The notes under the pieces were generated by a model. The model saw only the letters and a program-made list of their open reading frames with translations. It did no database searches and had not been told where the DNA came from. DNA of 64,000 bases from NCBI GenBank assembly GCA_947085655.1, contig CAMTXH010000006.1, positions 70,498 to 134,497 on the forward strand. Direction: 5' to 3'. A program made the translations under genes and the position numbers. The DNA is from an uncultured Omnitrophica bacterium. GTDB lineage: Bacteria; Omnitrophota; Gorgyraeia; JACQQV01. Shown piece by piece: positions 12,537-57,013 of this stretch; position 1 is the stretch's first letter, and each line of letters opens with the position of its first letter.

Positions 12537-12538
12537 CC

Positions 12539-22959: not shown

Positions 22960-22980
22960 TGTTTCTCCTTTTTCTAAAGA

Positions 22981-25569: not shown

Positions 25570-25852
25570 TTTACACCATACACCTTACACCGTTTTATTG
25601 GGGTGGCGGGCGGAATAGGTTGGGAAGGATGGGGGTCCAGGCCCAAGCCCTATCCCACCTGCCATCCCAAAGGGATTGCAAGTTTATAAAAGTTCTGAAG
25701 AAACTGGTTAAAAAAAGAACCCCCGATCCTGGGAAAAGTATATCACACCCCAGGGGGGATGTCAAGGTATGAAAGTCAACTTAAAAAAACATGTAACGTG
25801 TTTAAAACTAAATAGTTAAGTAAATTTAAAAACGACATTTTGTCTCGATTAA

Positions 25853-33677: not shown

Positions 33678-34429
33678 GATAAGCCCAGTTTTTTTGTGAT
33701 TGGCCCTACTTTGCCGTTTCCGATAACCCGGCGATCGACCGATGCGACCGGCATGATCCCCATGGAGGTATTGGTTAAAAAGGCCTCGTCCGCCCCATAC
33801 AGTTGGGTCCGGGTAAAAGGTTCCTCCCGGACCGGGATCCGGAGTTCTCTCGATCGCCGGAGGGTCTGGTCCCGCGTAATCCCGCGTAAAATGCCGAGGG
33901 AGGAGGGAGGGGTCCAGAGTTCTCCCCCCTTCACCATAAAAAGATTCGCGATTCTTCCCTCTGTGACGTATCCTCTCGCATCCAGATAAATTTCTTCGAG
34001 GGCCTCCGGAAGCGTCAGTGAATCGATCGTTGCCAAAAGTCCGTTCGTGTAATCTTTGACCTTCAGTTGAGCATCCAACGCACTGATCACATTCCGCCGC
34101 GTGGCACTCGTCCGGACCGCTACCCCCCTTTCGTAATAGGAAAGAGGATACCGCTTTGCCTCCTTCACGATCAAAAAAAGGCGTGCACGTTTTCCCTCCT
34201 TCAAAAAGGCAAGCCGGATCAAGGCGTTCGGGTAGGGCTTCGAAGAGATTTCTTTTTCAAGGAGCCGCTTCAGCTGGACGCGCGAACGGCCGATTGAAAA
34301 ATCAAGGGTCCGGGCCGAGTCAAAGAGGCGGTCGAGGTGTTCCCCCAAAGCAACGATCTTTCTCTTCTCAGATCTCAACGTCTCAAAGATCCCTTCCGCC
34401 AAAACATCCTTCGCCAAAAATTCAGGCAT
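33650..34429 (-). CDS. pabC: aminodeoxychorismate lyase (class IV aminotransferase fold)
   Basis: Fold-type IV PLP enzyme sequence. Operon position between pabB and folC. Confidence 0.65.
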   Translation of the reverse strand: MPEFLAKDVLAEGIFETLRSEKRKIVALGEHLDRLFDSARTLDFSIGRSRVQLKRLLEKEISSKPYPNALIRLAFLKEGKRARLFLIVKEAKRYPLSYYERGVAVRTSATRRNVISALDAQLKVKDYTNGLLATIDSLTLPEALEEIYLDARGYVTEGRIANLFMVKGGELWTPPSSLGILRGITRDQTLRRSRELRIPVREEPFTRTQLYGADEAFLTNTSMGIMPVASVDRRVIGNGKVGPITKKLGLSWQKQNRPS

Positions 34430-35885
34430 GCAGAAGTTTCCCCTCCCCTTTCAGCGCCTCCACCAACGCCTGCGCTTTATGGAGACTCTCTTCGTACTCC
34501 CTCAAGGGATCCGAATCTGCGACGATACCGGACCCGACCTGAATATAGGCCTGGTCCTCTTTCAGGATGAATGTCCGGATCACCAGATTCAAGTCCATCT
34601 CGCCGTTAAAACCGAGGTAGCCGATGGAACCGGTATAAATCCCCCGGCCCACCGGCTCCAATTCGTCGATAATTTCCATGCACCGGACCTTTGGGACGCC
34701 GGTAATCGTTCCCCCGGGGAAGAGGGCCCGGAGGATTTCGAGAAAGTGATTCCCTTTTTTGAGATGCCCCCGGATGTTCGAGACGATGTGGATGACATGG
34801 GAGTATTCTTCCAGCGTCATCATTTCGTTCACACGGACCGTCCCAAAATCGCAGACCCTTCCCAGGTCGTTCCGCTCAAGGTCAATCAGCATCAGATGTT
34901 CGGCTCTTTCCTTCTCGTTGAGCAAAAGTTCCACCCGTTTTTTCAAGTCCTCTTCTTCGTCCTTCCCCCGCGGTCGGGTTCCGGCAATCGGGCGGGTCTC
35001 GAGCCACTCGCCGTCTTTCCGGACCAGCCGCTCCGGCGAGGAACTCACAATTGCAAAATCGCCGAAATCAAAAAAAGCGGCAAAGGGAGAGGGATTGATC
35101 TGCCGGAGATGTTCATAGAGAAAATAGGGGGGGCCGCTGTAGGAACCGTGAAGACGTTGGGAGAGGTTTGCCTGAAAAATATCCCCCGCCCGGATGAAAT
35201 TTTTGGCCCGTTCCACCATCCATTTGAATTCAAGATAAGACATATTGGATGAAATTCGGGAGACGCGGATCGTTTCTTCTTTTTGAACTGGGAAGGAGAC
35301 GCTTCGAAGAAGGTCCTCCATGCTTTCAATCTCTTCGACGGCGCGGGCATACCCTTTTTCCCTTTCCTCTGCGGAGGCATTCGCAACAAGCCACACCTTC
35401 CCCTCGAGATGGTCAAAGGCAACCAGACGGTTCACAAACAAAAACAACAGGTCCGGCAGGAGCAAATCGTTCTTGGCAAAATTCGGAAGCCGCTCAAAGA
35501 AATGCCGCACGTCGTAACTGAAATAGCCGACCGCGCCGCCGCTGAAAGGGGGAAATCCGGAAAACTTGGGGCTTCGATGCCGGGAAAGAACTCGCCAAAG
35601 AATCCTAAGCGGCTCCCCCCGCATCGATTCCGTTTTTCCTCCCTCTTCCATCCAGACCCAGTCCCCCTTGCTTTTAAAGACCAGATACGGATCCCACCCC
35701 AAAAACGAGTAGCGGCCGGTCAGCGGATGGTGCCGGGCACTCTCCAAGAGGAAGGGGTACCCTGTTTTCAGAACCTTTTTGAGAAGCTCGGTGGGATTGG
35801 GTAAGTCTGTAACTTCTTTATATACAGGTACTTGTGAAAAGTCTTTGGCCAGTTCCAAAAACTGGCTCAAGGAGGGTGTAACCAT
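34422..35885 (-). CDS. pabB: aminodeoxychorismate synthase component I (chorismate-binding enzyme)
   Basis: Chorismate-binding C-terminal domain (GTITGVPKVRCMEIIDELE...GSIGY). Adjacent to pabC and folC. Confidence 0.75.
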   Translation of the reverse strand: MVTPSLSQFLELAKDFSQVPVYKEVTDLPNPTELLKKVLKTGYPFLLESARHHPLTGRYSFLGWDPYLVFKSKGDWVWMEEGGKTESMRGEPLRILWRVLSRHRSPKFSGFPPFSGGAVGYFSYDVRHFFERLPNFAKNDLLLPDLLFLFVNRLVAFDHLEGKVWLVANASAEEREKGYARAVEEIESMEDLLRSVSFPVQKEETIRVSRISSNMSYLEFKWMVERAKNFIRAGDIFQANLSQRLHGSYSGPPYFLYEHLRQINPSPFAAFFDFGDFAIVSSSPERLVRKDGEWLETRPIAGTRPRGKDEEEDLKKRVELLLNEKERAEHLMLIDLERNDLGRVCDFGTVRVNEMMTLEEYSHVIHIVSNIRGHLKKGNHFLEILRALFPGGTITGVPKVRCMEIIDELEPVGRGIYTGSIGYLGFNGEMDLNLVIRTFILKEDQAYIQVGSGIVADSDPLREYEESLHKAQALVEALKGEGKLLHA

Positions 35886-35893
35886 GGGAAATA

Positions 35894-36400
35894 TTATAAC
35901 ATATTTCCCGTAAGGTTGGCTTGATATCGCTTCAGAAAAAGGCGGTCTTTTTCGCGACCTGCGATCTTTTTGGACATGAGCAGTTTCCGGAGCCCTCCCA
36001 CACGGATGGGGACCTCATCCACCAGAAAAATTTTCGCATCCTTTTCCAGTTCCCGAAAAACGTAACCGGAGATTCGCAGAAGAAGCTCAATCTGAATTCC
36101 CTGGGGATTGGTCGCCATCAAGGTTCCTTGCCGTTGAACAATTTCTTTTATGTGATCGGGGCGGAAGGGTCCTTCTTTCGTTGCGACATGGAATCCTAAG
36201 CGTGATAAAATACCGACTGCTTTTTTAAGATTTCCAAGGGTGTTTTCTAAAAAGAGGTCGTAGTCTTGGGTCGAAAAACTCTCGGAAGGACTTTTGGCAT
36301 AATAGTTGATCCCTGAGACGCCGACCACTACATACCGAACCCCCTTTTGGTTGAAGGCATGAAGGACTTCGGTATAAGGATCAAATCGTGGGCGGTTCAT
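35894..36400 (-). CDS. minimal nucleotidyltransferase-fold protein (putative toxin/antitoxin partner)
   Basis: hG[GS] ... [DE]h[DE]h pattern (VVVGVSGINYY...DYDLFLE). The start ATG immediately follows the stop of the upstream HTH gene. Confidence 0.5.
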   Translation of the reverse strand: MNRPRFDPYTEVLHAFNQKGVRYVVVGVSGINYYAKSPSESFSTQDYDLFLENTLGNLKKAVGILSRLGFHVATKEGPFRPDHIKEIVQRQGTLMATNPQGIQIELLLRISGYVFRELEKDAKIFLVDEVPIRVGGLRKLLMSKKIAGREKDRLFLKRYQANLTGNML

Positions 36401-36741
36401 CGCTTTTTCTTCGCCTTCACATAGTGTCGGTTCCATGCAAGAGTCACTTTCGGAACCCAGGACTTGTCAGTCCCATCCTCGGACAACGCCTCAATTTTGT
36501 CTACTGCTCGATCAAGGGCTTTTTCATGAAAAAGCGGTCTTTCCTCCTCAGAACCCAAAATCAGATCCCCTACCCCACAGTGAAGAAACTGGGCTATCTT
36601 GGAAAGTTGTCTCAAGGAGACTGGGCGCGTTCCAGAATCCATCGCTGAAAGATTTGAGAGATACAGGCCAAGTTTTTTTGCCACTTCGGTCAGTGTCATT
36701 CCTCTCAACAACGCTTCTCCCCGTATATGGGTCCGAACCAT
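36397..36741 (-). CDS. XRE-family helix-turn-helix transcriptional regulator
   Basis: N-terminal HTH_XRE-like segment (LTEVAKKLGLYLSNLSAMDSG). Confidence 0.65.
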   Translation of the reverse strand: MVRTHIRGEALLRGMTLTEVAKKLGLYLSNLSAMDSGTRPVSLRQLSKIAQFLHCGVGDLILGSEEERPLFHEKALDRAVDKIEALSEDGTDKSWVPKVTLAWNRHYVKAKKKR

Positions 36742-36757
36742 CCGTTTCCCCCTTATT

Positions 36758-36788
36758 CAATATTATCATAAAGTGATAATATTGTCAA
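36758..36788 (-). promoter_or_regulatory. promoter overlapped by a perfect 11-5-11 palindromic operator (CAATATTATCA-taaag-TGATAATATTG)
   Basis: On the minus strand: TTGACA-N17-TAATAT. The palindrome spans the -10 and spacer, immediately upstream of the HTH gene. Confidence 0.6.
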
Positions 36789-36793
36789 GTGCC

Positions 36794-37819
36794 TTAGACG
36801 CTGAATTTGATGGCGAGGACGTCGCCGTCTTTGACCGGGTACTCCTTCCCTTCCAAACGGAGAAGCCCCTTCTCGCGGAGGGTATTGACCGAACCGTGGT
36901 TGAAAAGGTCATTACAGGAAAAGACCTCTGCTTTGATAAATCCCCTTGCCATGTCGGTGTGAATTTTGCCGGCCGCATCGATCACTGTTCTTCCTTCCTC
37001 AAGCGCCCAAGCCCTTGCCTCATCCCCTACCACCGTAAAAAAGGAGATCGTCTGGAAGGCCTGGAAAGTTGTCTTGAAAAAGGACTCTTTGGCGAGTTGT
37101 TCGATGCCGAGTTCCTTCATAAATGTTTTCCGCTCCGCTTCATCCAGTTCAAGAAGCTCTTTTTCGCTCTTCGCGGAAAATGCTATCCATGGAAGACCGA
37201 GCTTCGCAATCTCCTCCAAACATTGCAATTTTTCTCCGATGCCAGATTCGGCAATGTTGACAATAATCGCCAAGGGTTTCCTGGATAGGAAGGTATAATG
37301 TTTGATCCATTTCTCCTCGTCGGCTGTCAAGGGTAGACTTCGAAGCGGCATCTCTTTTTTCACAGCGTCGCGACATTTGACAAGGACCGGAAGTTCCTTT
37401 TCCCTCTCCTTCCTCCCTTTCTTGAGTTCTTCTTCCAGTTTCCGGGTGGAACTTTCAAGAACCTCCAGATCCTTCAGCAAAAGTTCTGAAGAAATGGCGT
37501 TGAATTCCTCAACCGGATTCGGGGAATCTGTAAAAGCATTCAATACCACCGCAAAACCCTCCGTCTCCCGGACCTGGGCAAAATTCAGTCCCTGATTGGG
37601 TGTCGCGGTCAGTTGGGGCGAATCGACCAGTTCTATGTGGAGATAAGTCTTTTTCTTGGAACGGACGATTTCGGAGAGCCGGTCGAGCCGCTCATCCAAA
37701 AAAGAGAGCGTGGCAATGGATGGTTTCTGGTATTCCGGCGGATGGGCCTGGGGTCCGGCAAGGGCAAAAAAAGCGGTGGTCTTCCCGGATTGGGGGACCC
37801 CGATGAGGGCGATCTTCAT
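36794..37819 (-). CDS. ychF: Obg-family ribosome-binding ATPase YchF homolog (atypical P-loop)
   Basis: Collinear with YchF including the C-terminal TGS-like end (KDGDVLAIKFSV). The G1 motif reads GVPQSGKTT instead of GLPNVGKST. Confidence 0.7.
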   Translation of the reverse strand: MKIALIGVPQSGKTTAFFALAGPQAHPPEYQKPSIATLSFLDERLDRLSEIVRSKKKTYLHIELVDSPQLTATPNQGLNFAQVRETEGFAVVLNAFTDSPNPVEEFNAISSELLLKDLEVLESSTRKLEEELKKGRKEREKELPVLVKCRDAVKKEMPLRSLPLTADEEKWIKHYTFLSRKPLAIIVNIAESGIGEKLQCLEEIAKLGLPWIAFSAKSEKELLELDEAERKTFMKELGIEQLAKESFFKTTFQAFQTISFFTVVGDEARAWALEEGRTVIDAAGKIHTDMARGFIKAEVFSCNDLFNHGSVNTLREKGLLRLEGKEYPVKDGDVLAIKFSV

Positions 37820-37876
37820 GAAACTATTTTAACATAAAAAAGATTGTGTTATGATGGTTTCCTGACGGAGGCACAG

Positions 37877-38488
37877 ATGGGACTTCTCGTACTGGTTCGG
37901 CACGGACAATCTCAGTGGAATCTTGAAAATAAATTCACCGGATGGATTGACGTCCCCCTCACCGAAAAAGGCCGGGAGGAAGCGCGGAAGGGGGCTTTGA
38001 AGATTAAAGCGATCCGTTTCGACAAGGCCTTTACCTCCGCTTTAATCCGTGCCCACCAGACCCTCGATATTATTCTGGAGGCGATTAAGCAGAAAACGAT
38101 TCCCGTCGAAAAGGACCAGGCGCTGAATGAGCGCCATTACGGCGAACTGCAGGGATTAAACAAGGACGAGATGCGCCAAAAATTCGGAGAGAAGCGGGTC
38201 CATCTTTGGCGCCGGAGTTACGATGTGGCGCCTCCCGGCGGGGAAAGTCTCAAAGATACGGCCGCCAGGACCCTTCCTTACTTTAGGAAGAAAATCCTGC
38301 CTGAAGTGAAAGCGGGTAAAAATATTCTTGTTTCGGCCCACGGCAACAGTCTCCGGTCGATCGTGATGGACCTTGATAAACTCTCGAAGGAGGAAGTCAT
38401 CCGACTTGAAATCGCAACTGGTGCCCCCATCGTCTACGAGATCGATCCCTCCGGAAAAATCCTTAAGAAGACTGTTCATGCCCTGTAG
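37877..38488 (+). CDS. gpmA: 2,3-bisphosphoglycerate-dependent phosphoglycerate mutase (short form)
   Basis: LVLVRHGQSQWN catalytic His motif and histidine phosphatase fold. RBS GGAGG upstream of ATG 37877. Confidence 0.85.
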   Translation: MGLLVLVRHGQSQWNLENKFTGWIDVPLTEKGREEARKGALKIKAIRFDKAFTSALIRAHQTLDIILEAIKQKTIPVEKDQALNERHYGELQGLNKDEMRQKFGEKRVHLWRRSYDVAPPGGESLKDTAARTLPYFRKKILPEVKAGKNILVSAHGNSLRSIVMDLDKLSKEEVIRLEIATGAPIVYEIDPSGKILKKTVHAL

Positions 38489-38936
38489 AAAGAGGAAATC
38501 GGATCGGCCAAAAAGGGTAATTCCCGGACCACTGGCCTTCCCGATTCAGCCGGATTTCCCGACCGGTATACTCGGCTGACCTTCGCCTCGCAATAATGGT
38601 AAAATCGTCTCTGCCTCCAATGACCCGATAATCCCACTTTCTTTCTTCCGAAAAGTTCGGCTCTATCAGCAAATTTCTGAACGGCGCCCCCCAGTATTCC
38701 AAACCATCCGAGGCAAATTTCAGATGTTCGTGATAATAAATGAATTCATCGCGGCGGATGATACCGAGAGTATAAAGGGCCTCGACTGTCGCGAATAGCT
38801 CCCTCCAAATAATGACCGGTGCCGGCGGTTCATCCGGTGACGCGTCATTTCCATAACCCGGCAAAGGGAAAAAGAAGAGAGTCGAGAGCAGCACCGCCAA
38901 AAGGAAAGACAAACTTCTTTTGGTTTTTCGAGTCAT
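38463..38936 (-). CDS. hypothetical secreted protein
   Basis: Internal start MTRKTKRSLSFLLAVLLSTLFFFPLPGYG gives a signal peptide. No recognisable domain. Confidence 0.4.
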   Translation of the reverse strand: MTRKTKRSLSFLLAVLLSTLFFFPLPGYGNDASPDEPPAPVIIWRELFATVEALYTLGIIRRDEFIYYHEHLKFASDGLEYWGAPFRNLLIEPNFSEERKWDYRVIGGRDDFTIIARRRSAEYTGREIRLNREGQWSGNYPFWPIRFPLSTGHEQSS

Positions 38937-39766
38937 GATAAAGTCCTCTGCGCATAGACGTACAGATATTGCTGAGCATAGCCGGAAGTTCCACCGAATT
39001 TTTTTTCGGCGAAACGTTGCATTTTCCGGTAAGAGCGGCGCCGGCCCCGAAAATAACACTTCCGAAGAGCCCGCTCAATCCAGACATCGATCGGAAACGC
39101 CTCCATCCTCCCGTACGCAAAAAGGAGAATGCAATCCGCCACCTTTTCTCCCACACCCGGAAGGGTTAAAAGGGCTTCTTTCGCTTCGGCCGTCTCCATC
39201 CGGTGCAATTTTTCCAGACGAAACCTCCCCTCCGAAACGGCCCTTGCCGTTTCCAAAAGATACCGGTCGCGGAAACCGGGGCGGATCGGAAAAAGATCGG
39301 AAGACTTAAGTGCCGCGATTTTCTCCGGTGCCGGAAAGGTATATCGGAGCGCGCCATTCGAACCAACCGGCATCCCGAAGCGGACGGAGAGATTTTCCAC
39401 CAAAGAGGCGATCCGCTTCACGTTGTTAAAAGAAGAAAAAATGTAAGAACCGAGACACTCCCACGGATCCTGTTTCAGAATCCGGAGCCCCCAGAATTCC
39501 TTGAGGGCATCTTCAAGAACAGGGTCTTCCCGGAGAGGAGAAAGCATTTCTTGGAGGTTCAGGTCGAGGGAAAAATACCGGACAATTTCTTCGGGTGGAA
39601 CAGGCGGATCGGTTTCCACAAAAAGAGTATCGCCTTCTTGCGAGACCTTCCAGACCCCATTGCCCACGACGCCGGTGTACCCCTCACCATTTCGCTGCCA
39701 CCGGAACGCCTGCCCGCACTCCAGCGTCTGCCGTAAACTAAAGTCACTTACCCGAAGTATAAGCAT
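38933..39766 (-). CDS. ogg: 8-oxoguanine DNA glycosylase / DNA lyase (HhH-GPD)
   Basis: HhH-GPD motif (LPGVGEKVADCILLF...D) and OGG1-like N-terminal domain. Confidence 0.8.
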   Translation of the reverse strand: MLILRVSDFSLRQTLECGQAFRWQRNGEGYTGVVGNGVWKVSQEGDTLFVETDPPVPPEEIVRYFSLDLNLQEMLSPLREDPVLEDALKEFWGLRILKQDPWECLGSYIFSSFNNVKRIASLVENLSVRFGMPVGSNGALRYTFPAPEKIAALKSSDLFPIRPGFRDRYLLETARAVSEGRFRLEKLHRMETAEAKEALLTLPGVGEKVADCILLFAYGRMEAFPIDVWIERALRKCYFRGRRRSYRKMQRFAEKKFGGTSGYAQQYLYVYAQRTLS

Positions 39767-39838
39767 ATGTTATCTTGTGCCGAGCGGCGACTCAGTACGT
39801 TGTAAGCGAAAAGCGACAGGGTTTGCCGGAGCGACTGT

Positions 39839-39889
39839 CGAAAATCCGACGCATCCTTGACCGCGATCCAGTGTCGCGTCGGATTTTCG
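39839..39889. repeat. 14-bp perfect inverted repeat hairpin (cgaaaatccgacgc / gcgtcggattttcg, 23-nt loop) within an AGCGA-rich intergenic region
   Basis: Read directly. No adjacent U-run, so not a terminator. Confidence 0.6.
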
Positions 39890-39973
39890 TCACAGCGAGC
39901 GGAGATGCGTAATCGAAGCGAGCGACAAGCGGAGGCAACCCTGGCGATTTTCGCTATGCCGAGCGGCTTCCCA

Positions 39974-40534
39974 TCAACTTTGAATTTTGGGAAGGGTGAT
40001 CTCCTTCTGCGCCTGGTATCGTCCCTTCTTATCCTTATAAGAGACCTCGCACACCTCATCCGCCTGAAAGAAAATCACCTGCCCAATTCCCTCATCCGCG
40101 TAGATTTTCGCGGGGAGCGGCGTGGTGTTCAAAATCTGAAGCGTCGCATACCCCTCCCACTCCGGCTCAAAAGGGGTAACGTTGATCAGGATGCCGCAGC
40201 GGGCATAACTCGATTTTCCGACGCAGAGCGTGAGAATATTCCTGGGAATCCGGAAATATTCCACCGTTTTCCCGAGCACAAAAGAATGGGGCGCGATCGT
40301 GCAGATTTTCCCGATAAAATCGGCGAAACAGGCCGGGTCCAGGTGCTTCGGATCGACGAAACTCGCTTTGGTCGGGTTGAAAATTTTGAATTCATCCGAG
40401 AGGGTGATGTCATAACCGTAGGAAGAGATACCGTAGGAAATCACCCCTTTTGAGAGCTGCCTTTCATGAAAGGGCTCGATCATTTTCTCTTTTTCGCACA
40501 TCTTCCGGATCCACCGGTCGTTTTTAATGCTCAT
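39974..40534 (-). CDS. dcd: dCTP deaminase
   Basis: Conserved Dcd sequence (GYDITL...[10 protein letters not shown]...FEPEWEG). Confidence 0.9.
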
Positions 40535-40609
40535 GCATTTCCTCCGAGGATCAGTTTCCTTAAATATTTAAACGGGAGGGAACCTTCTTTGAGAAGCCGC
40601 GTATGGAAT

Positions 40610-42160
40610 TCACCCAGCTTGAAATGACCCTTTTTTCTTGTAATCCTCCCTTAACCTCAAAATTTCCTGCTTCCCGATCAGATAACTGGACGGCTGGGTC
40701 GGCTCCAACAGATACCGTCTCACCTCTCTGATGGCAGAGTCATGCGCCATCGAGACCTCCCGCTTCAAAAATGCCACTCCCTCCCTTGATGTCATCCGGC
40801 CGGTATGGAGTTGCGAATCGAGGATGACGCGGGAGGATCGCCAGAGATGGTTTTTCATGAGGAGAAGATAGGTCTTCGAATCCGGGTCAAATCCCTCTTC
40901 AAGCATCATCTCTTCGCAATAAAAAGCCCATCCTTCTGCCAGCACATCATCATGCGAAAACTTCCGGATGGGGGAGGGGTGGTCATTCTGCCAGGCGAAC
41001 TGAAGGTGGTGCCCCGGATAGGCCTCGTGGATTACCGTCAGCCGAACTTCCTGGATCGAGTGCTCCCGCAGAAGGGCCCGGATTTTTTTCTTGCTTCCAA
41101 AAGGAGGGGTCACATAGAAAATGCCCTGCGGCTTTTTCTCAAGGGGAGCCGGCGGAAGGTAGGCGGCATACGGGATAATCGGCCGATCATAGACGGGTGT
41201 TTCGGTTACAAGGAGATGATCCTTCCTCGGGAATTTGGCGATCTCTTTCTCCCGGATAAAGCGCCTCACCCGGGAAAGGACCTTTTGGTACTCGCCGACA
41301 AGATGTTTCGGGCTTGGAAGATCCAGCCGGCTTTTATAAAGGATGGAGCGCCAGTCCTGATGGGGATCAATGAGCTTGGCAACCATCCGGATTTTTTTCT
41401 TCGACGATTCCAGTTCCTCCCTTCCCATCTCGTAGAGGGTTTTGGAATTGTAGGGCAGAAGATGCGCCTCTTTCAGCATGAAGTCGAAAAGCTCGCGTCC
41501 GATGGCGGCGGATCCCTTTGCCTTTCGAAAAAGTTTTTTCTTAAGAAAGCGGCTGTATTCTCTGAGGGCGAGGAGAGTTTCCCGCTGCGCCTCCAAAAGG
41601 TCTCTCCGAAGGGATGCGGGCAACCCCGAGTCTTTTGGGACAATGTCTTCAAAGAATTCGATGGCGCTTTCGGTGATTTCATGGGCGGTGTGGACGGCGT
41701 CCTTTGAGCAGACTTTCAGATTCCGCTTGGCCTGTTCCAGAAACCGCGGGATCTGCCGCATCCGGAGACTCAGATTCCGAACCCGTTCCTTCCGCGGCGC
41801 AAAGATCCCGACCACAAGGAAATAACAGGCCTCCGTGCAGTACGTGGCGTAAGAGGCGGGGTCCGTCTCCCAGGGCCTCTGGCGTCTCTCAAGTTCCAAT
41901 CCCGCCCAAAGGTCCTGGCAGAGTGATTCATAATCGATCCGCGTTTCAAAATCGAGTCTTTGGGGGTTTATTTTGCTCCGGAAGGCCCGTAAAAAATCGG
42001 CCTCCCCCCTCAGATACTCTTCGATTCCGTCTTTCGAAAAATCACCGAGGAGATCATCATAAAGATGGTATCCGTAATGGGTCGCCTCCATCGGCCGGGC
42101 CCTGAAAAAGAACCGTTTATAATCGGAAAAGAGTTTGTAGAGTTTTTCCTTCTCGGACAT
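40610..42160 (-). CDS. DUF885 family protein (metallopeptidase-like HExxxGHH)
   Basis: HEAYPGHHLQ motif. Size ~516 aa. Confidence 0.65.
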   Translation of the reverse strand: MSEKEKLYKLFSDYKRFFFRARPMEATHYGYHLYDDLLGDFSKDGIEEYLRGEADFLRAFRSKINPQRLDFETRIDYESLCQDLWAGLELERRQRPWETDPASYATYCTEACYFLVVGIFAPRKERVRNLSLRMRQIPRFLEQAKRNLKVCSKDAVHTAHEITESAIEFFEDIVPKDSGLPASLRRDLLEAQRETLLALREYSRFLKKKLFRKAKGSAAIGRELFDFMLKEAHLLPYNSKTLYEMGREELESSKKKIRMVAKLIDPHQDWRSILYKSRLDLPSPKHLVGEYQKVLSRVRRFIREKEIAKFPRKDHLLVTETPVYDRPIIPYAAYLPPAPLEKKPQGIFYVTPPFGSKKKIRALLREHSIQEVRLTVIHEAYPGHHLQFAWQNDHPSPIRKFSHDDVLAEGWAFYCEEMMLEEGFDPDSKTYLLLMKNHLWRSSRVILDSQLHTGRMTSREGVAFLKREVSMAHDSAIREVRRYLLEPTQPSSYLIGKQEILRLREDYKKKGSFQAG

Positions 42161-42221
42161 CGCCTTTTTTCCATCATACTACAAAAAGAATAGACAGGAA
42201 AGCACAATCCCGCTAAAATAA

Positions 42222-43622
42222 ATGGCCATGAACAAAATCCAAAGGGCCAACTGGGTGCATGAGCTTCTTTTAAAACTTCCCCCCGAAGAGCAACGAAACC
42301 TCCTTCGCCGGGTCCGACAGGTCAGTCACGAGGAGAGAATCCTGTATGAAAAATCGAGGGGAGGGGAGAAGGTGATCGACCTTTTTGTCCGGCCCCGTCT
42401 CCTCTATCCATATCAGTTGGCCTACTGCCGGAGCATCATCCTGGAACTTCAGAAGGCGATCGAGACGATTTACTTCAATTATTTCCATGAACCGATGTTT
42501 CAGGAAATTCTTCCTTTCCACGGCATTGAAAGGGAGCATTTTGTCCGCTTTTATGCCGCCCAGGGCCGCGCCCAAACCGTCATGAGCCGGTGGGATGCCG
42601 TTTCCGATTATAGCGGCGCGAACTGGAAAAGGCACCTTCGGTTTGTCGAATGGAACGGCGTCGGAATCGGCGGGATTTACTATGCGGTTGCGACAGAAGC
42701 AATTATGCGGCGGTCTCTCCTCCCGCTCCTTAAGAAATTGCGTCCCGATCTTCAGATTGTGCGGATGACCGATGCCCGCGAGTTGCTTCTGCGGCAGATC
42801 CTCCGCCATGCCAAAAAGGTGCGTATTTCCTTAAAACGCGTCGCTTTGGTGGAGGAACTCCGTGACCCCGGCGGGCCGCTCGAATTCGAAGAGTTCCGCG
42901 ATTACTTCAAAAAAAGGGGGCTCGATGCGCTCCTTTCGGATGCGCGAGATCTCTCTTTAAGGAAGGGAAAGATTTTTGCGCGCGGAAAAGAGGTCCAGAT
43001 GATTTACCGGGATACGGAGCTTGAAGAAGCCCTTTATATGGAAAAAAAGAAAGAAAACGTCGATGCCTTTAAGGAGGCGTTCCGCCGGAATGCCGCCGTC
43101 TCTTCCTTAATGGGAGAACTTGACCATAAAAGCGCTTTGGAGGTTCTCACCCGGCCCGATCTTGCGGGCACCTTTACCCCGAAGCAGCGCAAAATCTTCC
43201 GCGCCCATGTCACCTGGACAAGGTTGCTTCGCCCCATCAAGACCACCGACCCCTACGGTCGGACGGTCGACCTCTATACGTATGCAAGACGCAAAAAAGA
43301 AACATCGGTGATTAAACCGAACCGGGAATTCGGAGGGGTCGGGGTTATCTTTGGAAGAAAACTTTCACAAAGGGAGTGGGAAAAAGCTTTGGCGAAGGCG
43401 GTCCGCCATCCGGGCACATGGGTGATTCAACATGAGGCCCAAAACCACCCGAAAAAATTTGTCACTTCCCGGAGGGGCAAACTTCAGGAGGAGACGATCA
43501 ATGTCGTCGACGGCCACATCGTCACCCCGGACGGGATCTCCATCATCGGCCGCGGCGCCCGCCATGAGGTTGTCAATGTTGCAAGACAGGGCGGCCTCGT
43601 CGCCACACTCGTGTATCGATAG
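42222..43622 (+). CDS. hypothetical protein, possibly ATP-grasp-like (circularly permuted/GspS-like)
   Basis: 466-aa ORF. Family assignment is tentative. The last 83 bp of the gene are duplicated at 45071-45153. Confidence 0.35.
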   Translation: MAMNKIQRANWVHELLLKLPPEEQRNLLRRVRQVSHEERILYEKSRGGEKVIDLFVRPRLLYPYQLAYCRSIILELQKAIETIYFNYFHEPMFQEILPFHGIEREHFVRFYAAQGRAQTVMSRWDAVSDYSGANWKRHLRFVEWNGVGIGGIYYAVATEAIMRRSLLPLLKKLRPDLQIVRMTDARELLLRQILRHAKKVRISLKRVALVEELRDPGGPLEFEEFRDYFKKRGLDALLSDARDLSLRKGKIFARGKEVQMIYRDTELEEALYMEKKKENVDAFKEAFRRNAAVSSLMGELDHKSALEVLTRPDLAGTFTPKQRKIFRAHVTWTRLLRPIKTTDPYGRTVDLYTYARRKKETSVIKPNREFGGVGVIFGRKLSQREWEKALAKAVRHPGTWVIQHEAQNHPKKFVTSRRGKLQEETINVVDGHIVTPDGISIIGRGARHEVVNVARQGGLVATLVYR

Positions 43623-43762
43623 GGACTGTCCCCCATATTCTCCTCCGAGTCGCTTCTGTGGGGGGACTGTCCCTAAGAGTAAATCCTTATTTACTGTCCC
43701 CCATACTGACGAGGGTGTTAGTAAGAAGGATACACTAGTCCCCTTAAAAGGGACTTAGTCCC
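43620..43762. repeat. GGGACTGTCCC-type palindromic repeat cluster (copy A)
   Basis: TAGGGACTGTCCCCCATA ... TGTGGGGGGACTGTCCCTAAGAGTAAATCCTTATTTACTGTCCCCCATA plus AGTCCCCTTAAAAGGGACT. The same units recur at 45151-45263 and 46412-46468. Confidence 0.8.
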
Positions 43763-43846
43763 GCAAGGTGTGGAATTCTTCTTGACAGACCCTGAAGGGT
43801 CGTGTAATATGAATATTGGATATTCAAAATATACATAGGCGCATTC

Positions 43847-45046
43847 ATGAAGATTCAAAGAATTCTGGCGAAAAAGCTTCTTTTGTCCGTGAAGCGTTTC
43901 CCGGTGGTGACCGTCACCGGACCCCGTCAATCGGGCAAAACCACACTGGTTCGTGGTGAACTCCGGAACTACGCGTATCTCTCATTGGAATCCCCCGACC
44001 ATCGCGCTTTTGCCTTAGAGGACCCCAAAGGATTCCTGAAGCAGTTTAACGGACCTGTCATCCTGGATGAGGTCCAGCGCACGCCGGATCTATTTTCCTA
44101 TATCCAGGTAGCCGTCGATGAGCGAGATCGTCCGGGGCAATTCATCCTGACAGGATCGCATCATTTTCTCCTCTTACAGACGATTTCACAGTCTCTGGCC
44201 GGACGGTGCGCTGTTCTGCATCTACTCCCCTTTTCTTTGGCGGAACTGTTTGGCCGTCAAAGTGCTTCGATGGAAAAACTGGGAAAAAGAGTTTCCTCCC
44301 CTGGCCCTCTTCCCCGTCGATCTCTTGTGGAATATCTTTTCTCCGGATTTTACCCGAGGATTCATGATAAAAGGCTTCCTCCCCGCGACTGGCTGGGGAG
44401 TTACTACCAGACCTATCTGGAGCGGGATGTCCGAAATGTCCTGAAAGTGGGGGATCTTGAGGCATTTAGCCGATTTGTCCATCTTTGCGCCGGACGGAAC
44501 GGGCAGTTGCTGAATCTTGTAGGGCTTGCTTCCGATTGCGGCATCACGCATACCACGGCGAGACGGTGGATTTCCGTCTTGGAAGCAAGTTTCCTGATTG
44601 TGCTCCTTCGGCCCCATCACCGAAATTTCGGAAAGCGGCTTGTCAAAAGCCCGAAGATTTATTTTTTGGACACGGGGCTTCTCTGCTTCTTGCTCGGAAT
44701 CCGATCTCCGCGGGAGCTCCATGCGCATGGCGCGCGCGGCGCCATTTTTGAGAGCCTTGTGTTTTCGGAGTTCTATAAGAATTTCGTCCACCGGGGGGAG
44801 CGGCCTTCCATTTATTTCTGGAGAGATGCTAGGGGACATGAGATCGATTTCCTCATCGACGCAGGCGGGCGTTTGCTACCGGTTGAAGCGAAGTCGGGTC
44901 GGACAGTTTCCGAGAACTTCTTTGATGAAATCGTCTACTGGAGGAGTCTTGCGGGACAGCGGAAAGCGCCGGCTGCTTTGATCTATGGGGGGGATCAGCC
45001 GTTACTGCGTCAAGGGGTAGCGATTCATCCCTGGTTTACGCTGTAA
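43847..45046 (+). CDS. AAA family ATPase with C-terminal DUF4143 (COG1373-type)
   Basis: Walker A (GPRQSGKTT) and Walker B (ILDEVQ). C-terminal region typical of DUF4143 proteins. Confidence 0.75.
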   Translation: MKIQRILAKKLLLSVKRFPVVTVTGPRQSGKTTLVRGELRNYAYLSLESPDHRAFALEDPKGFLKQFNGPVILDEVQRTPDLFSYIQVAVDERDRPGQFILTGSHHFLLLQTISQSLAGRCAVLHLLPFSLAELFGRQSASMEKLGKRVSSPGPLPRRSLVEYLFSGFYPRIHDKRLPPRDWLGSYYQTYLERDVRNVLKVGDLEAFSRFVHLCAGRNGQLLNLVGLASDCGITHTTARRWISVLEASFLIVLLRPHHRNFGKRLVKSPKIYFLDTGLLCFLLGIRSPRELHAHGARGAIFESLVFSEFYKNFVHRGERPSIYFWRDARGHEIDFLIDAGGRLLPVEAKSGRTVSENFFDEIVYWRSLAGQRKAPAALIYGGDQPLLRQGVAIHPWFTL

Positions 45047-45070
45047 TCATCCATTATTCTTCGACTATCC

Positions 45071-45153
45071 CCATCATCGGCCGCAGCGCCCGCCATGAGG
45101 TTGTCAATGTTGCAAGACAGGGCGGCCTCGTCGCCACGCTGGTGTATCAATAG
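45071..45153 (+). pseudogene. duplicated 3' tail of the upstream ATP-grasp-like gene (83 bp, ~5 mismatches, ends in the same TAG)
   Basis: Aligns to 43540-43622. Would encode ...IIGRSARHEVVNVARQGGLVATLVYQ*. Confidence 0.75.
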
Positions 45154-45263
45154 GGACTGTCCCTAAGAGTAAATCCTTATTTACTGTCCCCCATACGCTT
45201 CTCTGAATCGCTTCTGTGGGGGGACTGTCCCTAAGAGTAAATCCTTATTTACTGTCCCCCATA
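45151..45263. repeat. GGGACTGTCCC-type palindromic repeat cluster (copy B, two tandem units)
   Basis: Two copies of GGGACTGTCCCTAAGAGTAAATCCTTATTTACTGTCCCCCATA separated by cgcttctctgaatcgcttctgtgg. Confidence 0.8.
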
Positions 45264-45395
45264 TAGTCCGCAGTTCGGAGTTTATAGTTCGTAGAAATAT
45301 TATGAGTGAAAGACTTCCCCGACATTTTTCCTTGACATCGCCTCCAGTCATAACTTACAATAATCATTGTAATAATTAACAATGGAGGGCGATGG

Positions 45396-45938
45396 ATGAT
45401 CAGTCTCCGATCCCAGATGACACAGAAAGTCCTTGGATACCTCATGCTCCATGAGGACTCGGAGCTCTATGTCAACGAAATGGCACGCCGCCTAGAGGTG
45501 GATCCGGGAAACCTCATTCGGAAGCTCAAAGAACTGGAGGAAGAAGGTCTTCTCAAAAGCCGCACAAGAGGAAAAGAACGCTATTATTCTCTCAACACCT
45601 CTTTTGCTCTCTTTAAAGAATACAAAAAGATCATCCTGAAAACAGTGGGTCTGGAACACCTCCTCAAAGAGGCGATCCGGAAGATAAAAGGCATTCAGGC
45701 GGCGTGGCTTTTCGGCTCCTATGCCAGGGATAAGATGGATGCTTCAAGCGATGTTGATCTTCTCCTCGTAGGGACACATGACGCCGTGGATGCCCAAAGG
45801 AAAATCGCTCCAATCCAAAAATCCATTGATCGGGAGATCAACGTCGTGAGCATGAGTCCAAAGGAATACCAAAAAGGCCGGGGAAGCCATTCCCTTCTTA
45901 AATCGATCCGGAAAAGCCGGCACATTCAACTCCTATGA
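45396..45938 (+). CDS. nucleotidyltransferase (MNT-type) with N-terminal winged-HTH
   Basis: GSYARDKMDASSDVDLLLV minimal NTase motif. N-terminal HTH-like segment. Confidence 0.7.
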   Translation: MISLRSQMTQKVLGYLMLHEDSELYVNEMARRLEVDPGNLIRKLKELEEEGLLKSRTRGKERYYSLNTSFALFKEYKKIILKTVGLEHLLKEAIRKIKGIQAAWLFGSYARDKMDASSDVDLLLVGTHDAVDAQRKIAPIQKSIDREINVVSMSPKEYQKGRGSHSLLKSIRKSRHIQLL

Positions 45939-46345
45939 CGTTTGAACAAGGATACTTTCGGGAATTTAAATTTACCAAAGCGCAAATTGCTCAGTATGTT
46001 CGGAATGCCGGTCGCGACCTGCAAATTGCCAAAGAAGATTCCCATCTTGAGGTCCGGTTCACGTATAGTTACCAAGCACTCATCAAAATCGCCATTGCGC
46101 TCGTTGCCAAGGAAGGGTATAGGGTCCGCAGTATTCCGGGGCATCATGTGAAGTTGTTGGCGAAAGCATCCGAACCTTTGAAGGATCCCGATGTCTTGGC
46201 GATCGGAGACGCCATGCGGACAAGGAGAAACGATGACTTCTATGGGGAAGGAATTTTAATTACCGAGAAAGAAGCGACGGATTACCTTGAATTTGTTCGG
46301 CGCATCCTCACCAAAGCCGAACACCTCATCCAAGGTAAGTCCTAA
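45935..46345 (+). CDS. HEPN domain protein (partner of the upstream MNT; type II/VII TA-like pair)
   Basis: 4-bp overlap with the MNT gene. Helical ~136-aa protein with an Rx4-6H-like segment (RSIPGHH). Assignment by context and size. Confidence 0.55.
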   Translation: MTFEQGYFREFKFTKAQIAQYVRNAGRDLQIAKEDSHLEVRFTYSYQALIKIAIALVAKEGYRVRSIPGHHVKLLAKASEPLKDPDVLAIGDAMRTRRNDDFYGEGILITEKEATDYLEFVRRILTKAEHLIQGKS

Positions 46346-46411
46346 AACATTTGAAGCAAGAGGAAACTTCTAGTCTTCCGGATACTAGAAGATCTCCCCT
46401 TTAAAGTTTCG

Positions 46412-46468
46412 TAGGGACTGTCCCCCATACTCTTCCCAGAGTCACTTCTGTGGGGGGACTGTCCCTAC
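46412..46468. repeat. GGGACTGTCCC-type palindromic element (copy C), abutting the kamA stop codon
   Basis: TAGGGACTGTCCCCCATA-(21 nt)-TGTGGGGGGACTGTCCCTA. Flanked by a ~34-bp imperfect duplication of the kamA 3' tail (46369-46411 vs 46476-46520). Confidence 0.8.
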
Positions 46469-47596
46469 CTACTCATCGGCGTATTCCGGGTATTCGAAGA
46501 TCTCCCCTTTATAGTTACGAAGGATCACTTTGCCGTCCCCCATGCTGACGATGTAATTGGGCTGGATCGGAATCTTCCCTCCCCCGCCGGGCCCGTCAAT
46601 CACATACGTCGGCACGGCATAGCCGGTCGTATGACCCCGCAGTCCTTCGATGATCTCGACCCCCTTCTGAACCGCAGTCCGGAAATGCGTCGTTCCCTTC
46701 ACCAAGTCACACTGGTAGATGTAGTAGGGACGGACTCGGATCATGAGGAGTTTGTGCATTAATTCTTTCATCACTTCCACAGAGTCGTTGATTCCTCTAA
46801 GGAGCACGCTTTGGCTTCCCAAGGGAATGCCGGCATCGACCATCCGTTCGCAGGCCTCCTTCACTTCCGGCGTAATCTCCTTCGGATGATTCACATGGAC
46901 ACTCATCCAGACCGGATGATACTTCCGGACCATTTCGCAAAATTCCGGCGTGATCCGCTGCGGAAGGGCAAACGGAATCCGGGAGCCGATCCGTAAAAAC
47001 TCGATATGTTTAATCGAGCGGAGTCTCTTCAGCATGTATTCGATTTTTGAGTCGATCAAAAGAAGAGGATCTCCGCCCGATATCAAGACATCCCTGACAA
47101 CCGGCGTTTTCTCAAGATACTCACAGGCCCGGTCGAAATTTTCCTGGACAAAAGGGTTCCGCTTGTCCTCGCCGACGATCCGGCTTCGGGTGCAGTAACG
47201 GCAATAAACCGCACAGCGGTTCGTCACCAAAAGGAGCACCCGGTCCGGATACCGATGGACCAGCCCCGGCACCGGCATGTGGCTGTCCTCCCCGCAGGGG
47301 TCGGTCATCTCAAGGGGCGAAACAATCAGTTCCCCCGCCCTCGGGACAAACTGCCGCCGGATCGGGCAACTCGGATCCTGGGGATCCATCAGGATGGCGG
47401 TATGGGGGGTAATGGCCATGGAGAGTTTATGCTTTGGAAGTTTAAGCCCCTCCTCTTCCTCGGGTGTGAGTGTAATGATCTGTTCCAGCTCTTCCTTGGT
47501 CTTCAGACTGTTCCGGAGTTGCCACTTCCAGTCGTTCCACTCCGCATCCGAAACACCACTCCAAATTCCCCGTGCGGCCTTTACCGCAATCGCCAT
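46469..47596 (-). CDS. kamA: lysine 2,3-aminomutase family radical SAM protein (KamA/EpmB-like)
   Basis: CxxxCxxC (CAVYCRYC). N-terminal W..WQLRN motif. PLP-binding region. Start placed at MAIAVKAARG (the ORF-track start is 55 codons upstream). Confidence 0.8.
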   Translation of the reverse strand: MAIAVKAARGIWSGVSDAEWNDWKWQLRNSLKTKEELEQIITLTPEEEEGLKLPKHKLSMAITPHTAILMDPQDPSCPIRRQFVPRAGELIVSPLEMTDPCGEDSHMPVPGLVHRYPDRVLLLVTNRCAVYCRYCTRSRIVGEDKRNPFVQENFDRACEYLEKTPVVRDVLISGGDPLLLIDSKIEYMLKRLRSIKHIEFLRIGSRIPFALPQRITPEFCEMVRKYHPVWMSVHVNHPKEITPEVKEACERMVDAGIPLGSQSVLLRGINDSVEVMKELMHKLLMIRVRPYYIYQCDLVKGTTHFRTAVQKGVEIIEGLRGHTTGYAVPTYVIDGPGGGGKIPIQPNYIVSMGDGKVILRNYKGEIFEYPEYADE

Positions 47597-47609
47597 GCTC
47601 TGCCCTCCT

Positions 47610-48680
47610 TTAGGATGCCGCCAGTCGATTGGTCTTCTGCCACAACTTCTCCTGCGGCACCGATTTTGCCCTTTTGCGGGCAATGGCACATTCCACAATT
47701 TTTCCGATGACGTCGGCATAAGAGAGTCCGGCGGCCTGCGCCGAACGGATGAAACCCGCATCCGACGAAATGGCAGGATTCGGATTCACTTCAATAATAT
47801 AAGGGGTCTCTCCCCTGGCTCTGAAATCGACCCGGACATAATCCCGGCACCCGAGCGCCGCGGAAGCCCTCAAGGCAAGGGCGTGGAGTCTTTTCTCAAG
47901 CGAAGAAGAAAGGGATGCGGGACAGACCGGCGGCGTTTTTTTATACTCCGGGGAATCCTCCTTCCACTTGGAAGCAAAGGTCAGGATCCGGGGCATGCCG
48001 GGAGGAATGGAGGAAAAATCAATTTCAGAAATCGGAAGGATCTGGGCGTTTTTTCCGTTTCCGAGAATCGCCACATTGAATTCCCGGCCGTCAATATACT
48101 CCTCCGCAATGACCGGCTGGTGGTACTTTACCATCATCTTCATGACCTGTTCGCGGAGGGCCGTTTCGTTTTCCACGACCGAATCCTTCTCCATGCCAAG
48201 ACTCCCATCCTCATGAAGGAGTTTCACGATGAGGGGAAACTGGACATTGGCCGGAAGCGCTTCGAGTCCGGTTTCAAAGACCAGATGAGCCGGCACCGGG
48301 AGGCCATTGGCTGACAAAAACCGCTGGGTCTTTGATTTGTTGAGGGAAAGTCCCAGGGTCAGAGGTCCGGATCCGGTATAAACCACTCCCAAAAGCTCCA
48401 TGAGAGATGCCACATACGCCTCGTACACCCCCTCCCCCTTGATATCCTCGCAGAGGTTGAAGACAATATCCCCCCGGTAAAGGAGGAGTTCCTGGAGAAA
48501 GGTCTCGATGTTCTGATAGACAATTTGTAGGCGGCGGGTCGTGTAGCCGAGCCGGGAGAGGGCCTGCTCCACCTCTTTGGCTTCGGTAAGGATGTCATCC
48601 TGGGAAGAGAGCGACCGATCTTCCGATCCCTCCCCGTATTGACTGTTATCGTAAAGAATGGTGATGGGTTCTCGATACAT
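47610..48680 (-). CDS. D-alanine--D-alanine ligase family ATP-grasp enzyme (Ddl-like) 1
   Basis: ATP-grasp motifs (LIVKLLHEDGSLGM...EEYIDGREF...IIEVNPNP). Confidence 0.7.
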   Translation of the reverse strand: MYREPITILYDNSQYGEGSEDRSLSSQDDILTEAKEVEQALSRLGYTTRRLQIVYQNIETFLQELLLYRGDIVFNLCEDIKGEGVYEAYVASLMELLGVVYTGSGPLTLGLSLNKSKTQRFLSANGLPVPAHLVFETGLEALPANVQFPLIVKLLHEDGSLGMEKDSVVENETALREQVMKMMVKYHQPVIAEEYIDGREFNVAILGNGKNAQILPISEIDFSSIPPGMPRILTFASKWKEDSPEYKKTPPVCPASLSSSLEKRLHALALRASAALGCRDYVRVDFRARGETPYIIEVNPNPAISSDAGFIRSAQAAGLSYADVIGKIVECAIARKRAKSVPQEKLWQKTNRLAAS

Positions 48681-56921: not shown

Positions 56922-56923
56922 GA

Positions 56924-57013
56924 GGGACGTTTCTACACCTGGCTCCAATCTGTCCCCGGCATCTGCCCTATCGCAGGCCGGGGACAGGTTGGGGACAGAA
57001 CTAGAAACGTCCC
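56924..57013. repeat. nested inverted repeats (GGGACGTTTCTA ... TAGAAACGTCCC enclosing GTCCCCGGC ... GCCGGGGAC)
   Basis: 12-bp outer IR with the right arm overlapping the stop of the MDR gene. 9-bp inner IR. Confidence 0.6.

Follow-up and report, generated by a model that had tools for sequence, protein, structure and literature searches.

How did two small gene cassettes come to lie between two conserved genes whose stop codons almost touch in related genomes, and why are the 3' ends of both of these genes duplicated at the cassette boundaries? The question is raised by a 64-kb stretch of DNA from an uncultured Omnitrophica bacterium (GenBank contig CAMTXH010000006.1, positions 70,498 to 134,497), hereafter called the window, whose own positions are used for all coordinates. 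Between an ATP-grasp-like gene and kamA the window carries an islet with a COG1373 ATPase gene, a gene pair encoding a nucleotidyltransferase (MNT) with a winged helix-turn-helix (wHTH) and a HEPN protein, and short hairpin repeats (E and H). An initial annotation had interpreted this as an accessory islet that arrived by site-specific insertion. The islet is indeed inserted at a hotspot, and the structure of its junctions suggests to us, with a probability of about 0.5, that it grew by repeated insertions through host recombination, based on homology or microhomology, at a hairpin-bearing convergent terminus.

An islet between two abutting conserved genes

The islet is bounded by two convergent genes:

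42222-43622, + strand: ATP-grasp-like gene, the left flanking core gene; weak match to CP_ATPgrasp_2, syntenic in relatives
46469-47761, - strand: kamA, the right flanking core gene, encoding a KamA-family radical SAM aminomutase; LAM_C and radical SAM domains confirmed

The nearest named relatives of the ATP-grasp-like protein are from Candidatus Omnitrophica metagenome-assembled genomes (MAGs), at 73-76% identity. Read from the left, the ATP-grasp-like gene and its tail (A) are followed by E1, H1, a promoter, the AAA_14/DUF4143 gene, a 20-nt spacer and a displaced copy of the ATP-grasp tail (A'); then come a solo palindrome, H2, E2, H3, a promoter with an inverted repeat over its -10 box, the wHTH-MNT gene and the HEPN gene; and finally a 24-nt spacer, a displaced copy of the kamA tail (K'), E3 and 3 nt before the kamA stop codon, with the inner end of K' forming the left arm of E3. 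These three annotated genes are the whole gene content of the islet.

The comparison with relatives that the initial annotation proposed reveals a cassette-free site in four related Omnitrophota lineages, in all of which the two genes are convergent and separated, stop to stop, by 2 nt (L001), 2 nt (L005/6/7), 12 nt (L008/9) or 4 nt (L141). Neither the E and H repeats nor their palindrome are present at these cassette-free loci. In a fifth lineage (L003) the ATP-grasp stop codon is followed by a kamA-tail remnant of about 33 nt and then by a ParE/RHH pair, and the spot has therefore acquired another toxin-antitoxin module. The locus is thus an accessory islet inserted at a hotspot between two abutting conserved genes, as had been proposed. 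At the far end of the ParE/RHH cassette, at the start of the antitoxin gene (L003 9929-9944), a 16-mer matches the ATP-grasp tail of the same locus (9363-9378) at 15 of 16 positions, and this may be a microhomology used in insertion.

Duplicated gene tails

A 97-nt direct repeat (43536-43632 vs 45067-45163, 95% identical) consists of the 3'-terminal 87 nt of the ATP-grasp-like gene, TAG included, and the first palindrome. The initial annotation had recognised this duplication at 45071-45153 as 83 bp, and the repeat reaches 4 nt further in the 5' direction. The duplication of the kamA 3' end that it had also described is present as a 43-nt repeat (46373-46415 vs 46481-46523, 84%), and alignment with the kamA tails of relatives shows that the displaced copy is colinear with them from its own stop codon (46370) to GTCCCCCATACT (46431), with one 7-nt gap. 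The tail copies and the smaller kamA-like fragments are as follows:

43536-43622, + strand: A, tail copy within the ATP-grasp-like gene, its last 87 nt
45067-45153, + strand: A', displaced pseudo-copy of the last 87 nt of the ATP-grasp-like gene including TAG; 5 differences from A, 3 of them non-synonymous
46370-46431, + strand: K', displaced pseudo-copy of the kamA 3' end, about 62 nt from its own stop codon to GTCCCCCATACT
46469-46551, - strand: K, functional kamA tail copy
43690-43712, + strand: 23-mer TTTACTGTCCCCCATACTGACGA, a kamA-derived fragment inside a repeat; matches kamA coding sequence at 46529-46551 (87%) and the kamA of relatives at 21 of 23 positions
43718-43765, + strand: degenerate kamA-tail-like fragments upstream of the ATPase promoter; shuffle p 0.0015 against K' and 0.016 against K, uncorrected for multiple tests

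A possible third kamA-tail copy to the left of the MNT cassette (45281-45296) was dropped at p 0.08-0.10. The duplicated tails are real insertion scars; by themselves they do not show an integrase-type mechanism.

Junctions in other strains and lineages

The arrangement around the ATPase gene is reproduced in three other assemblies. L139 (GCA_964374045.1) is 99.755% identical to window positions 34221-45258 and has the same A-E1-H1-ATPase-A'-E/H order until its contig ends inside H3, and the Logan contigs L134 and L140, from other samples, have the same ATPase gene and the same junction of the ATPase cassette with A'. Two segments of the window are central to the comparison with these and more distant loci:

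45031-45066, + strand: variable patch, the last 16 nt of the ATPase gene and the 20-nt spacer; the spacer part is hardly alignable between alleles
45325-46345, + strand: MNT/HEPN cassette; homology to the L135 cassette starts at 45325

Outside the 36-nt patch the ATPase gene is identical in L134 and differs by 3 bases in L140, the alleles being near-identical over about 1.2-1.35 kb. Within the patch the window diverges strongly from both L134 and L140, and identity returns in A'; so divergent a patch within near-identical alleles points to recombination at the cassette edge.

The MNT/HEPN cassette recurs in L135 with about 87% nucleotide identity overall and 93% identity of the MNT protein. 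The shared sequence sets in 11 nt upstream of the -35 box and fades out some 25 nt short of the HEPN stop codon, limits which indicate that the cassettes are minimal promoter-to-stop modules without terminal repeats of their own. In L135 a copied stretch of 28 nt comes 8 nt after the HEPN stop codon and derives from the ATP-grasp tail (25/28, p<0.0005), not from kamA; the left flank has no significant similarity to the ATP-grasp tail (p 0.44). The same cassette thus adjoins a kamA tail copy in the window and an ATP-grasp tail copy in L135. A further MNT/HEPN pair, in L136, lies beside a tRNA-Glu gene and has no flanking repeats. Among strains and lineages the tail junctions fall at -87 (possibly about -110) and -28 in the ATP-grasp-like gene and at about -62 and -35 in kamA, and these differing positions argue against a single attachment (att) site.

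A related organization is seen in an unrelated genome (L138) at another convergent gene pair, where a cytochrome-c-assembly gene faces a 721-aa open reading frame (ORF). The cargo (L138 3270-5760) comprises a DUF4143 gene (34% identical to that in the window), an MNT gene (81%) and a HEPN pseudogene, and the cassettes are parted by direct repeats that include the 3' end of a resident gene (X1-T2 vs X2-T3, about 78 nt, about 78%; T1 vs T3, 39 nt, 85%). The tail copy that adjoins the DUF4143 gene is just 17 nt long. The L138 locus is the same architecture at a different target with related cargo.

Pfam scans (E <= 1e-5) covered nearly all of the non-overlapping window ORFs of at least 110 aa, and precomputed Pfam calls covered the remaining few, which lie in a syntenic stretch. 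Integrase, transposase and Y1 transposase domains are absent from these ORFs, several of which have no Pfam match; nor is there a recombinase domain that would represent IntI, a REP-associated tyrosine transposase (RAYT) or cognate Y1 transposase among the ORFs scanned in the window, or an evident integrase fragment in the islet. The initial annotation had likewise reported no integrase. A conserved att core is not visible, and by inspection neither E nor H contains the attC boxes of integrons (GTTRRRY/RYYYAAC). Integrons and clusters of attC sites lacking an integron-integrase (CALIN) are expected to hold mostly promoterless cassettes, whereas both cassettes here have strong promoters of their own. 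With junctions at different positions, one cassette beside different tails and neither an att core nor attC, the proposal of site-specific insertion lacks support in the form given, and the insertion hotspot is clear but fairly ordinary, without a recombinase of its own. Among the ORFs scanned, one of 2968 aa (12539-21445) has a PIG-L domain as its sole match, and three large ORFs at 21448-27193 have none.

Hairpin repeats at the cassette boundaries

The boundaries are further marked by two kinds of repeat:

43622-43673, no strand assigned: E1, a 52-nt hairpin, GGGACTGTCCCCCATA - loop - CTTCTGTGGGGGGACTGTCCC; the G with which it starts is also the last base of the TAG stop codon of the ATP-grasp-like gene, and TA lies on both sides
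43674-43705, + strand: H1, a 32-nt unit TAAGAGTAAATCCTTATTTACTGTCCCCCATA made of a 7-bp AT-rich hairpin and ACTGTCCCCCATA
45153-45263, no strand assigned: repeat block with a period of 68 nt, consisting of a solo palindrome (45153-45163), H2 (45164-45195), E2 (45183-45231) and H3 (45232-45263)
46414-46465, no strand assigned: E3, a 52-nt hairpin 91% identical to E1 and 3 nt from the kamA stop codon

A palindromic element had been described after each copy of the ATP-grasp tail and again beside the kamA stop codon, and all three were recovered at those positions. Exact copies of the palindrome GGGACTGTCCC number six in the 64 kb and are confined to 43622-46465; at a tolerance of one mismatch the strand matches rise to 14, where 1.76 are expected, and none of 100 shuffles reached that number. 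The H unit TAAGAGTAAATCCTTATTTACT has three copies, all at this locus, and no further copy of E or H was found elsewhere in the window. Folding energies of the E hairpins as DNA are -15 to -21 kcal/mol (z -3.8 to -7.4). The solo palindrome corresponds to an E without the 41 nt that lie exactly between its two 11-mers, and E2/H3 forms a 68-nt tandem step; both the deletion and the step point to slippage among the repeats. The arm ACTGTCCCCCATA (E/H arm GTCCCCCATA), together with the CTGACGA that follows it in H1, matches conserved kamA coding sequence, with 21 of 23 positions shared with relatives. Since the arm is colinear with kamA, and kamA-like scraps lie at 43718-43765, the tail of the neighbouring gene seems to have supplied at least part of E and H.

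A scan of a genome collection for E returned one true homologue of the whole 52-nt hairpin, on a 3-kb contig of another MAG (L011). It lies where that contig starts, with TA on its one readable side, and an HTH_XRE gene and a DUF2204-like nucleotidyltransferase gene follow about 170 nt downstream. Two other matches were rejected, L012 as a coding GGLSP signal-peptide repeat and L013, from a viral scan, as a chance match within a coding region. A metagenome scan with a 20-mer that includes loop sequence gave no match. When only the arms were used, the matches listed included more than 120 metagenome contigs with the 13-nt arm core (L014-L133, GC 0.36-0.80), and in these the palindrome GGGGGAC(A/T)GTCCCCC is clustered, with 2-8 copies per cluster that mostly repeat in tandem every 31-65 nt or so. 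The arrays look like a widespread class of repeats resembling repetitive extragenic palindromic (REP) sequences; most of the contigs were rejected as sources of E homologues because the common part is only the G5AC(A/T)GTC5 core. Rfam gave no match for 43000-47000 at E<=1, and in the literature the palindrome was found only in primers and unrelated matches. A role of E as the operator of the wHTH-MNT protein was rejected, a separate conserved palindrome, TTACAAT-N4-ATTGTAA, overlapping the -10 box in the window, L135 and L136. As regards miniature inverted-repeat transposable elements (MITEs), E has 14-nt arms, and TA flanks E1 and E3; TA is itself palindromic and hence not diagnostic.

Other hairpins are also present. 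A 92-nt hairpin at 56923-57014 has 38-nt arms that are 84% complementary (AGGGACGTTTCTA...TAGAAACGTCCCT), and its right end overlaps the stop codon of a zinc-dependent alcohol dehydrogenase gene (57013-58041, - strand). The L135 contig terminates in TAGGGACGTTTTTGG immediately after its ATP-grasp tail copy, and a related hairpin type may therefore replace E in L135.

Content of the two cassettes

The genes and signals of the two cassettes are:

43782-43810, + strand: sigma-70-like promoter of the ATPase cassette, TTGACA-17-TAATAT, 10/12
43847-45046, + strand: COG1373 ATPase, AAA_14 and DUF4143 (PD-(D/E)XK superfamily); PADLOC PDC-S01
45332-45361, + strand: MNT/HEPN promoter, 11/12 match
45355-45372, + strand: operator-like inverted repeat TTACAAT-N4-ATTGTAA over the -10 box
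45396-45938, + strand: wHTH-nucleotidyltransferase (MNT; HTH and NTP_transf_2) with an N-terminal wHTH; GSx10DxD present
45935-46345, + strand: HEPN, reading RRNDDFY

The gene calls of the initial annotation agree with the Pfam domains found (AAA_14 and DUF4143, HTH and NTP_transf_2, HEPN, and LAM_C/radical SAM for kamA). The ATPase has a Walker A motif (GPRQSGKT), a Walker B motif (ILDE) and D..ExK in DUF4143, a family listed with COG1373 in the PD-(D/E)XK superfamily, and its closest homologues, at about 70-78% identity, come from several phyla. Relative to 31 long ORFs, GC content is lowered in the MNT gene (0.485, z -3.3) and the HEPN gene (0.480, z -3.6), in keeping with the AT-richness first noted by eye, and is not lowered in the ATPase gene (0.534, z -0.3). 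The HEPN protein matches its Pfam family at 23.3 bits against a cut-off of 22; RRNDDFY contains no histidine, and the Rx4-6H RNase motif is absent. The MNT protein has the GSx10DxD motif and scores 32.6 bits with NCBIfam MntA_antitoxin, below the cut-off of 60. The defence or accessory nature suggested earlier is upheld by matches to PADLOC profile HMMs for candidate defence systems, PDC-S01 for the ATPase (4e-107) and PDC-M05A (2e-41) and PDC-M05B (1e-12) for the pair, and the cassettes are candidate self-regulated toxin-antitoxin or defence modules. In IMG/VR the MNT protein has only weak HTH matches, and flanking direct repeats were found around none of nine DUF4143 loci. Comparison of the region with plasmids and phages gave nothing meaningful, the plasmids yielding only a weak 66% match inside the ATPase gene.

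Other insertions and duplicated 3' ends in the window

A pair of genes at 35894-36741 (- strand), encoding an HTH_XRE protein (114 aa) and a DUF2204-like nucleotidyltransferase (180 aa) and having its own promoter, is an insertion that parts the start codon of a pabB-like gene from the stop codon of ychF, two genes that lie 56 nt from each other in L001. Its GC content is low (z -3.3 and -4.3), it is homologous to the pair next to E in L011 (67% and 79% amino acid identity), and no repeats flank it.

In the region 11853-12540 one arrangement occurs twice, after a tRNA-Ala gene (11853-11928) and after a tRNA-Leu gene (12289-12375): a 32-35-nt tail ending in an exact 10-nt inverted copy of the gene's own T-arm (GGGGATCGAA / GAGGGTCGAA), a common GC-rich core of about 106 nt (92% identical over 139 nt) and a direct duplicate of the last 20-21 nt or so of the tRNA. 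For tRNA-Ala the duplicate extends over 53 nt at 100% identity (11908-11960 = 12067-12119). The core folds at -76 kcal/mol (z -2.7) and lacks an Rfam match, and neither the retrieved loci nor IMG/VR yielded a copy of it; possibly it is a miniature element with tRNA genes as its target. The layout (gene, inverted copy, core, direct copy of the 3' end) resembles that of kamA, E3 and K'.

How the cassettes may have been joined

We favour a scenario in which the 2-12-nt gap between two convergent conserved genes served as a hotspot for at least three separate additions, namely the promoter-bearing wHTH-MNT/HEPN pair, the promoter-bearing COG1373 ATPase-nuclease gene and the E/H hairpin copies. The genes leave almost no neutral space between them, so that each event would have cut into the last 30-110 nt or so of one of them, and the gene would have stayed intact because each surviving event brought a fresh tail copy. 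The old tail would then have been displaced inward as a pseudo-fragment (A' or K'), leaving the newest insert next to the gene. The joints could have formed between a homologous anchor (a gene tail or the hairpin repeats) on one side and a microhomology on the other, or by template switching while breaks or stalled forks were being repaired at the convergent terminus with its hairpins. Related strains would have supplied the inserted DNA, and the repeats would afterwards have exchanged sequence and slipped. ComEC (763 aa) and a ComEA-like HHH_3 protein are encoded adjacently elsewhere in the window (6685-9385), and DNA uptake is therefore plausible.

Host recombination is favoured because the junctions vary, the same cassette lies beside different tails and no recombinase was found among the ORFs scanned; the L138 locus, in which DUF4143, MNT and HEPN cassettes are parted by copies of the resident tail, was also counted in its favour. 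Several points weigh against it. The insertion, the hotspot, the duplications and the cassette limits are observed, and from these we infer every step of the joining. Every cassette boundary has the motif TA-GGGACTGTCCC...-TA and a 44-nt stretch at 100% identity, and this motif could be the recombination site of an enzyme encoded elsewhere, the window covering 64 kb of the genome. The sole other E homologue (L011) adjoins a toxin-antitoxin-like cassette, which hints at a specific link between E and cassettes, and the 95% identity of A and A' fits a recent Campbell-type or site-specific event equally well. A more general process, in which promoter-to-stop cassettes of the COG1373 and MNT/HEPN kinds spread without a recombinase to the 3' ends of convergent genes and leave target duplications of 17-170 nt, with a homing-type COG1373 nuclease or E as a break or recombination site possibly taking part, is distinctly improbable.

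Among the other explanations, decayed or non-autonomous integrative elements could have used an att site overlapping a gene 3' end and integrated successively with replacement tails, E and H belonging to the att region. The ATPase cassette does lie between direct repeats of 130-170 nt (tail, E and H), E2 and E3 (90% identical) flank MNT/HEPN, and full and partial direct repeats of the target tail, as expected of islands at gene 3' ends, are present as A/A' and K/K'. The order of gene, new insert and old tail is that of successive tycheposon integrations with scattered partial att copies (bioRxiv 10.1101/2020.12.28.424599). The MNT/HEPN pair of L136 adjoins a tRNA-Glu gene, and the duplicated 3' ends after the common 106-nt element at two tRNA genes of the window mean that something in this genome duplicates gene 3' ends. 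Nevertheless, independent insertions do not share one crossover position as they should in such islands: the junctions differ by event and by target (ATP-grasp, kamA and the L138 gene), leaving no common att core, the cassettes are just 1.0-1.4 kb, and the window ORFs scanned and the islet offer no integrase domain or evident fragment. We regard this account as unlikely on balance. It is still less probable that E, and with it the 92-nt hairpin at 56923-57014, is a mobile hairpin like REPs and bacterial interspersed mosaic elements (BIMEs) or MITEs, and that breakage and repair stimulated by the palindromes drove the duplication and the capture of cassettes. The TA on both sides of full E copies, the BIME-like array in which inverted arms alternate with linkers of two types every 68 nt, the position of E at stop codons between convergent genes, the near-identical E in another MAG and the arm core in arrays of metagenome contigs of widely varying GC would all suit such an origin. 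The copies are confined to one locus of the 64 kb, unlike dispersed REPs, and no RAYT or transposase accompanies them among the ORFs scanned. As TA is palindromic, a target duplication is indistinguishable from an extension of the arms; the colinearity of part of the arm sequence with kamA suggests that it arose locally, and most metagenome matches have only the core palindrome in common.

There is little likelihood that the COG1373 protein, with its AAA+ ATPase and PD-(D/E)XK domains, is a free-standing homing endonuclease that cut the cassette-free ATP-grasp tail and was copied in together with a replacement tail. The order of gene core, inserted tail, nuclease ORF and native tail is that of the atp6, atp9, cox2 and nad3 hybrids (PMC3630166), DUF4143 belongs to the PD-(D/E)XK superfamily with D..ExK present, and the ATPase gene is almost identical in strains that differ at its edge. 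On the other hand, the nine IMG/VR DUF4143 loci lack tail duplications or significant flanking repeats, the MNT/HEPN cassette, which has no nuclease, bears the same type of scar, the tail copy beside the DUF4143 gene of L138 measures just 17 nt, and with new and old tails 95% identical the inserted tail would hardly have been protected from cleavage. Finally, strain variants might have been strung together through shared repeats during assembly, and the short-read contigs L134, L139 and L140 do break in repeats, ending in H or A'. This is almost certainly not the explanation: the unique junction of spacer and A' recurs in L134, L139 and L140, that of H1 with x recurs in L139 and L140, and neither junction is homology-mediated.

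Small defence and toxin-antitoxin modules occur in many hotspots without mobile-element genes, and their route of arrival is poorly understood. This locus is an unusually readable record, with a cassette-free site, two delimited cassettes, both pseudo-tails, hairpins built partly of tail sequence and the same layout in a second genome, and it could be used to test how streamlined uncultured bacteria gain cassettes without an integrase. If ordinary integrase decay is instead the mechanism, the locus is a well-documented islet.

Comparison with known systems

Enterobacterial REPs and BIMEs are short GC-rich imperfect palindromes that lie after stop codons, often between convergent genes, and are hotspots of recombination and insertion. 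The palindromes described here are likewise GC-rich, alternate in orientation, have two linker types and lie just past stop codons; they differ in having no dispersed copies in 64 kb and no RAYT, and in an arm that derives partly from neighbouring coding sequence.

The locus has the defining features of neither tandem-accreting elements nor mobile endonuclease ORFs, although it resembles both. In tycheposons and tRNA-targeting islands, integrative elements accrete in tandem at a gene 3' end (bioRxiv 10.1101/2020.12.28.424599). As in those islands, the inserts adjoin a conserved gene whose 3' end stands in full on one side of them and in part on the other, older inserts and partial copies are moved inward by newer inserts, and the cargo is of the defence or accessory kind. 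In contrast to them, the locus has no integrase or integrase fragment, its targets are two protein-coding genes that face each other, its junctions vary between events and its units are promoter-to-stop modules of 1.0-1.4 kb. Mobile endonuclease ORFs of fungal mitochondria leave a carboxy-terminal duplication (PMC3630166; Allomyces atp6 as cited there), and the sequence of gene core, inserted C-terminal part, ORF and native C-terminal pseudo-copy is the same here. The ORF in the window differs in being unfused and having its own promoter, the tails are 95% identical compared with 64-81% in the fungal cases (PMC3630166), a non-nuclease cassette has the same scar, and the nuclease activity of the COG1373 protein is a predicted one.

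The MNT/HEPN cassette itself departs from the type VII HEPN/MNT system HepT/MntA in that the MNT gene comes first and encodes an N-terminal wHTH, the HEPN protein is of the PF05168 type without Rx4-6H, and the MntA score is the low one given above. Like that system, it is a two-gene operon whose genes overlap by 4 nt, has a palindrome of the autoregulation type over the -10 box and shows horizontal mobility.

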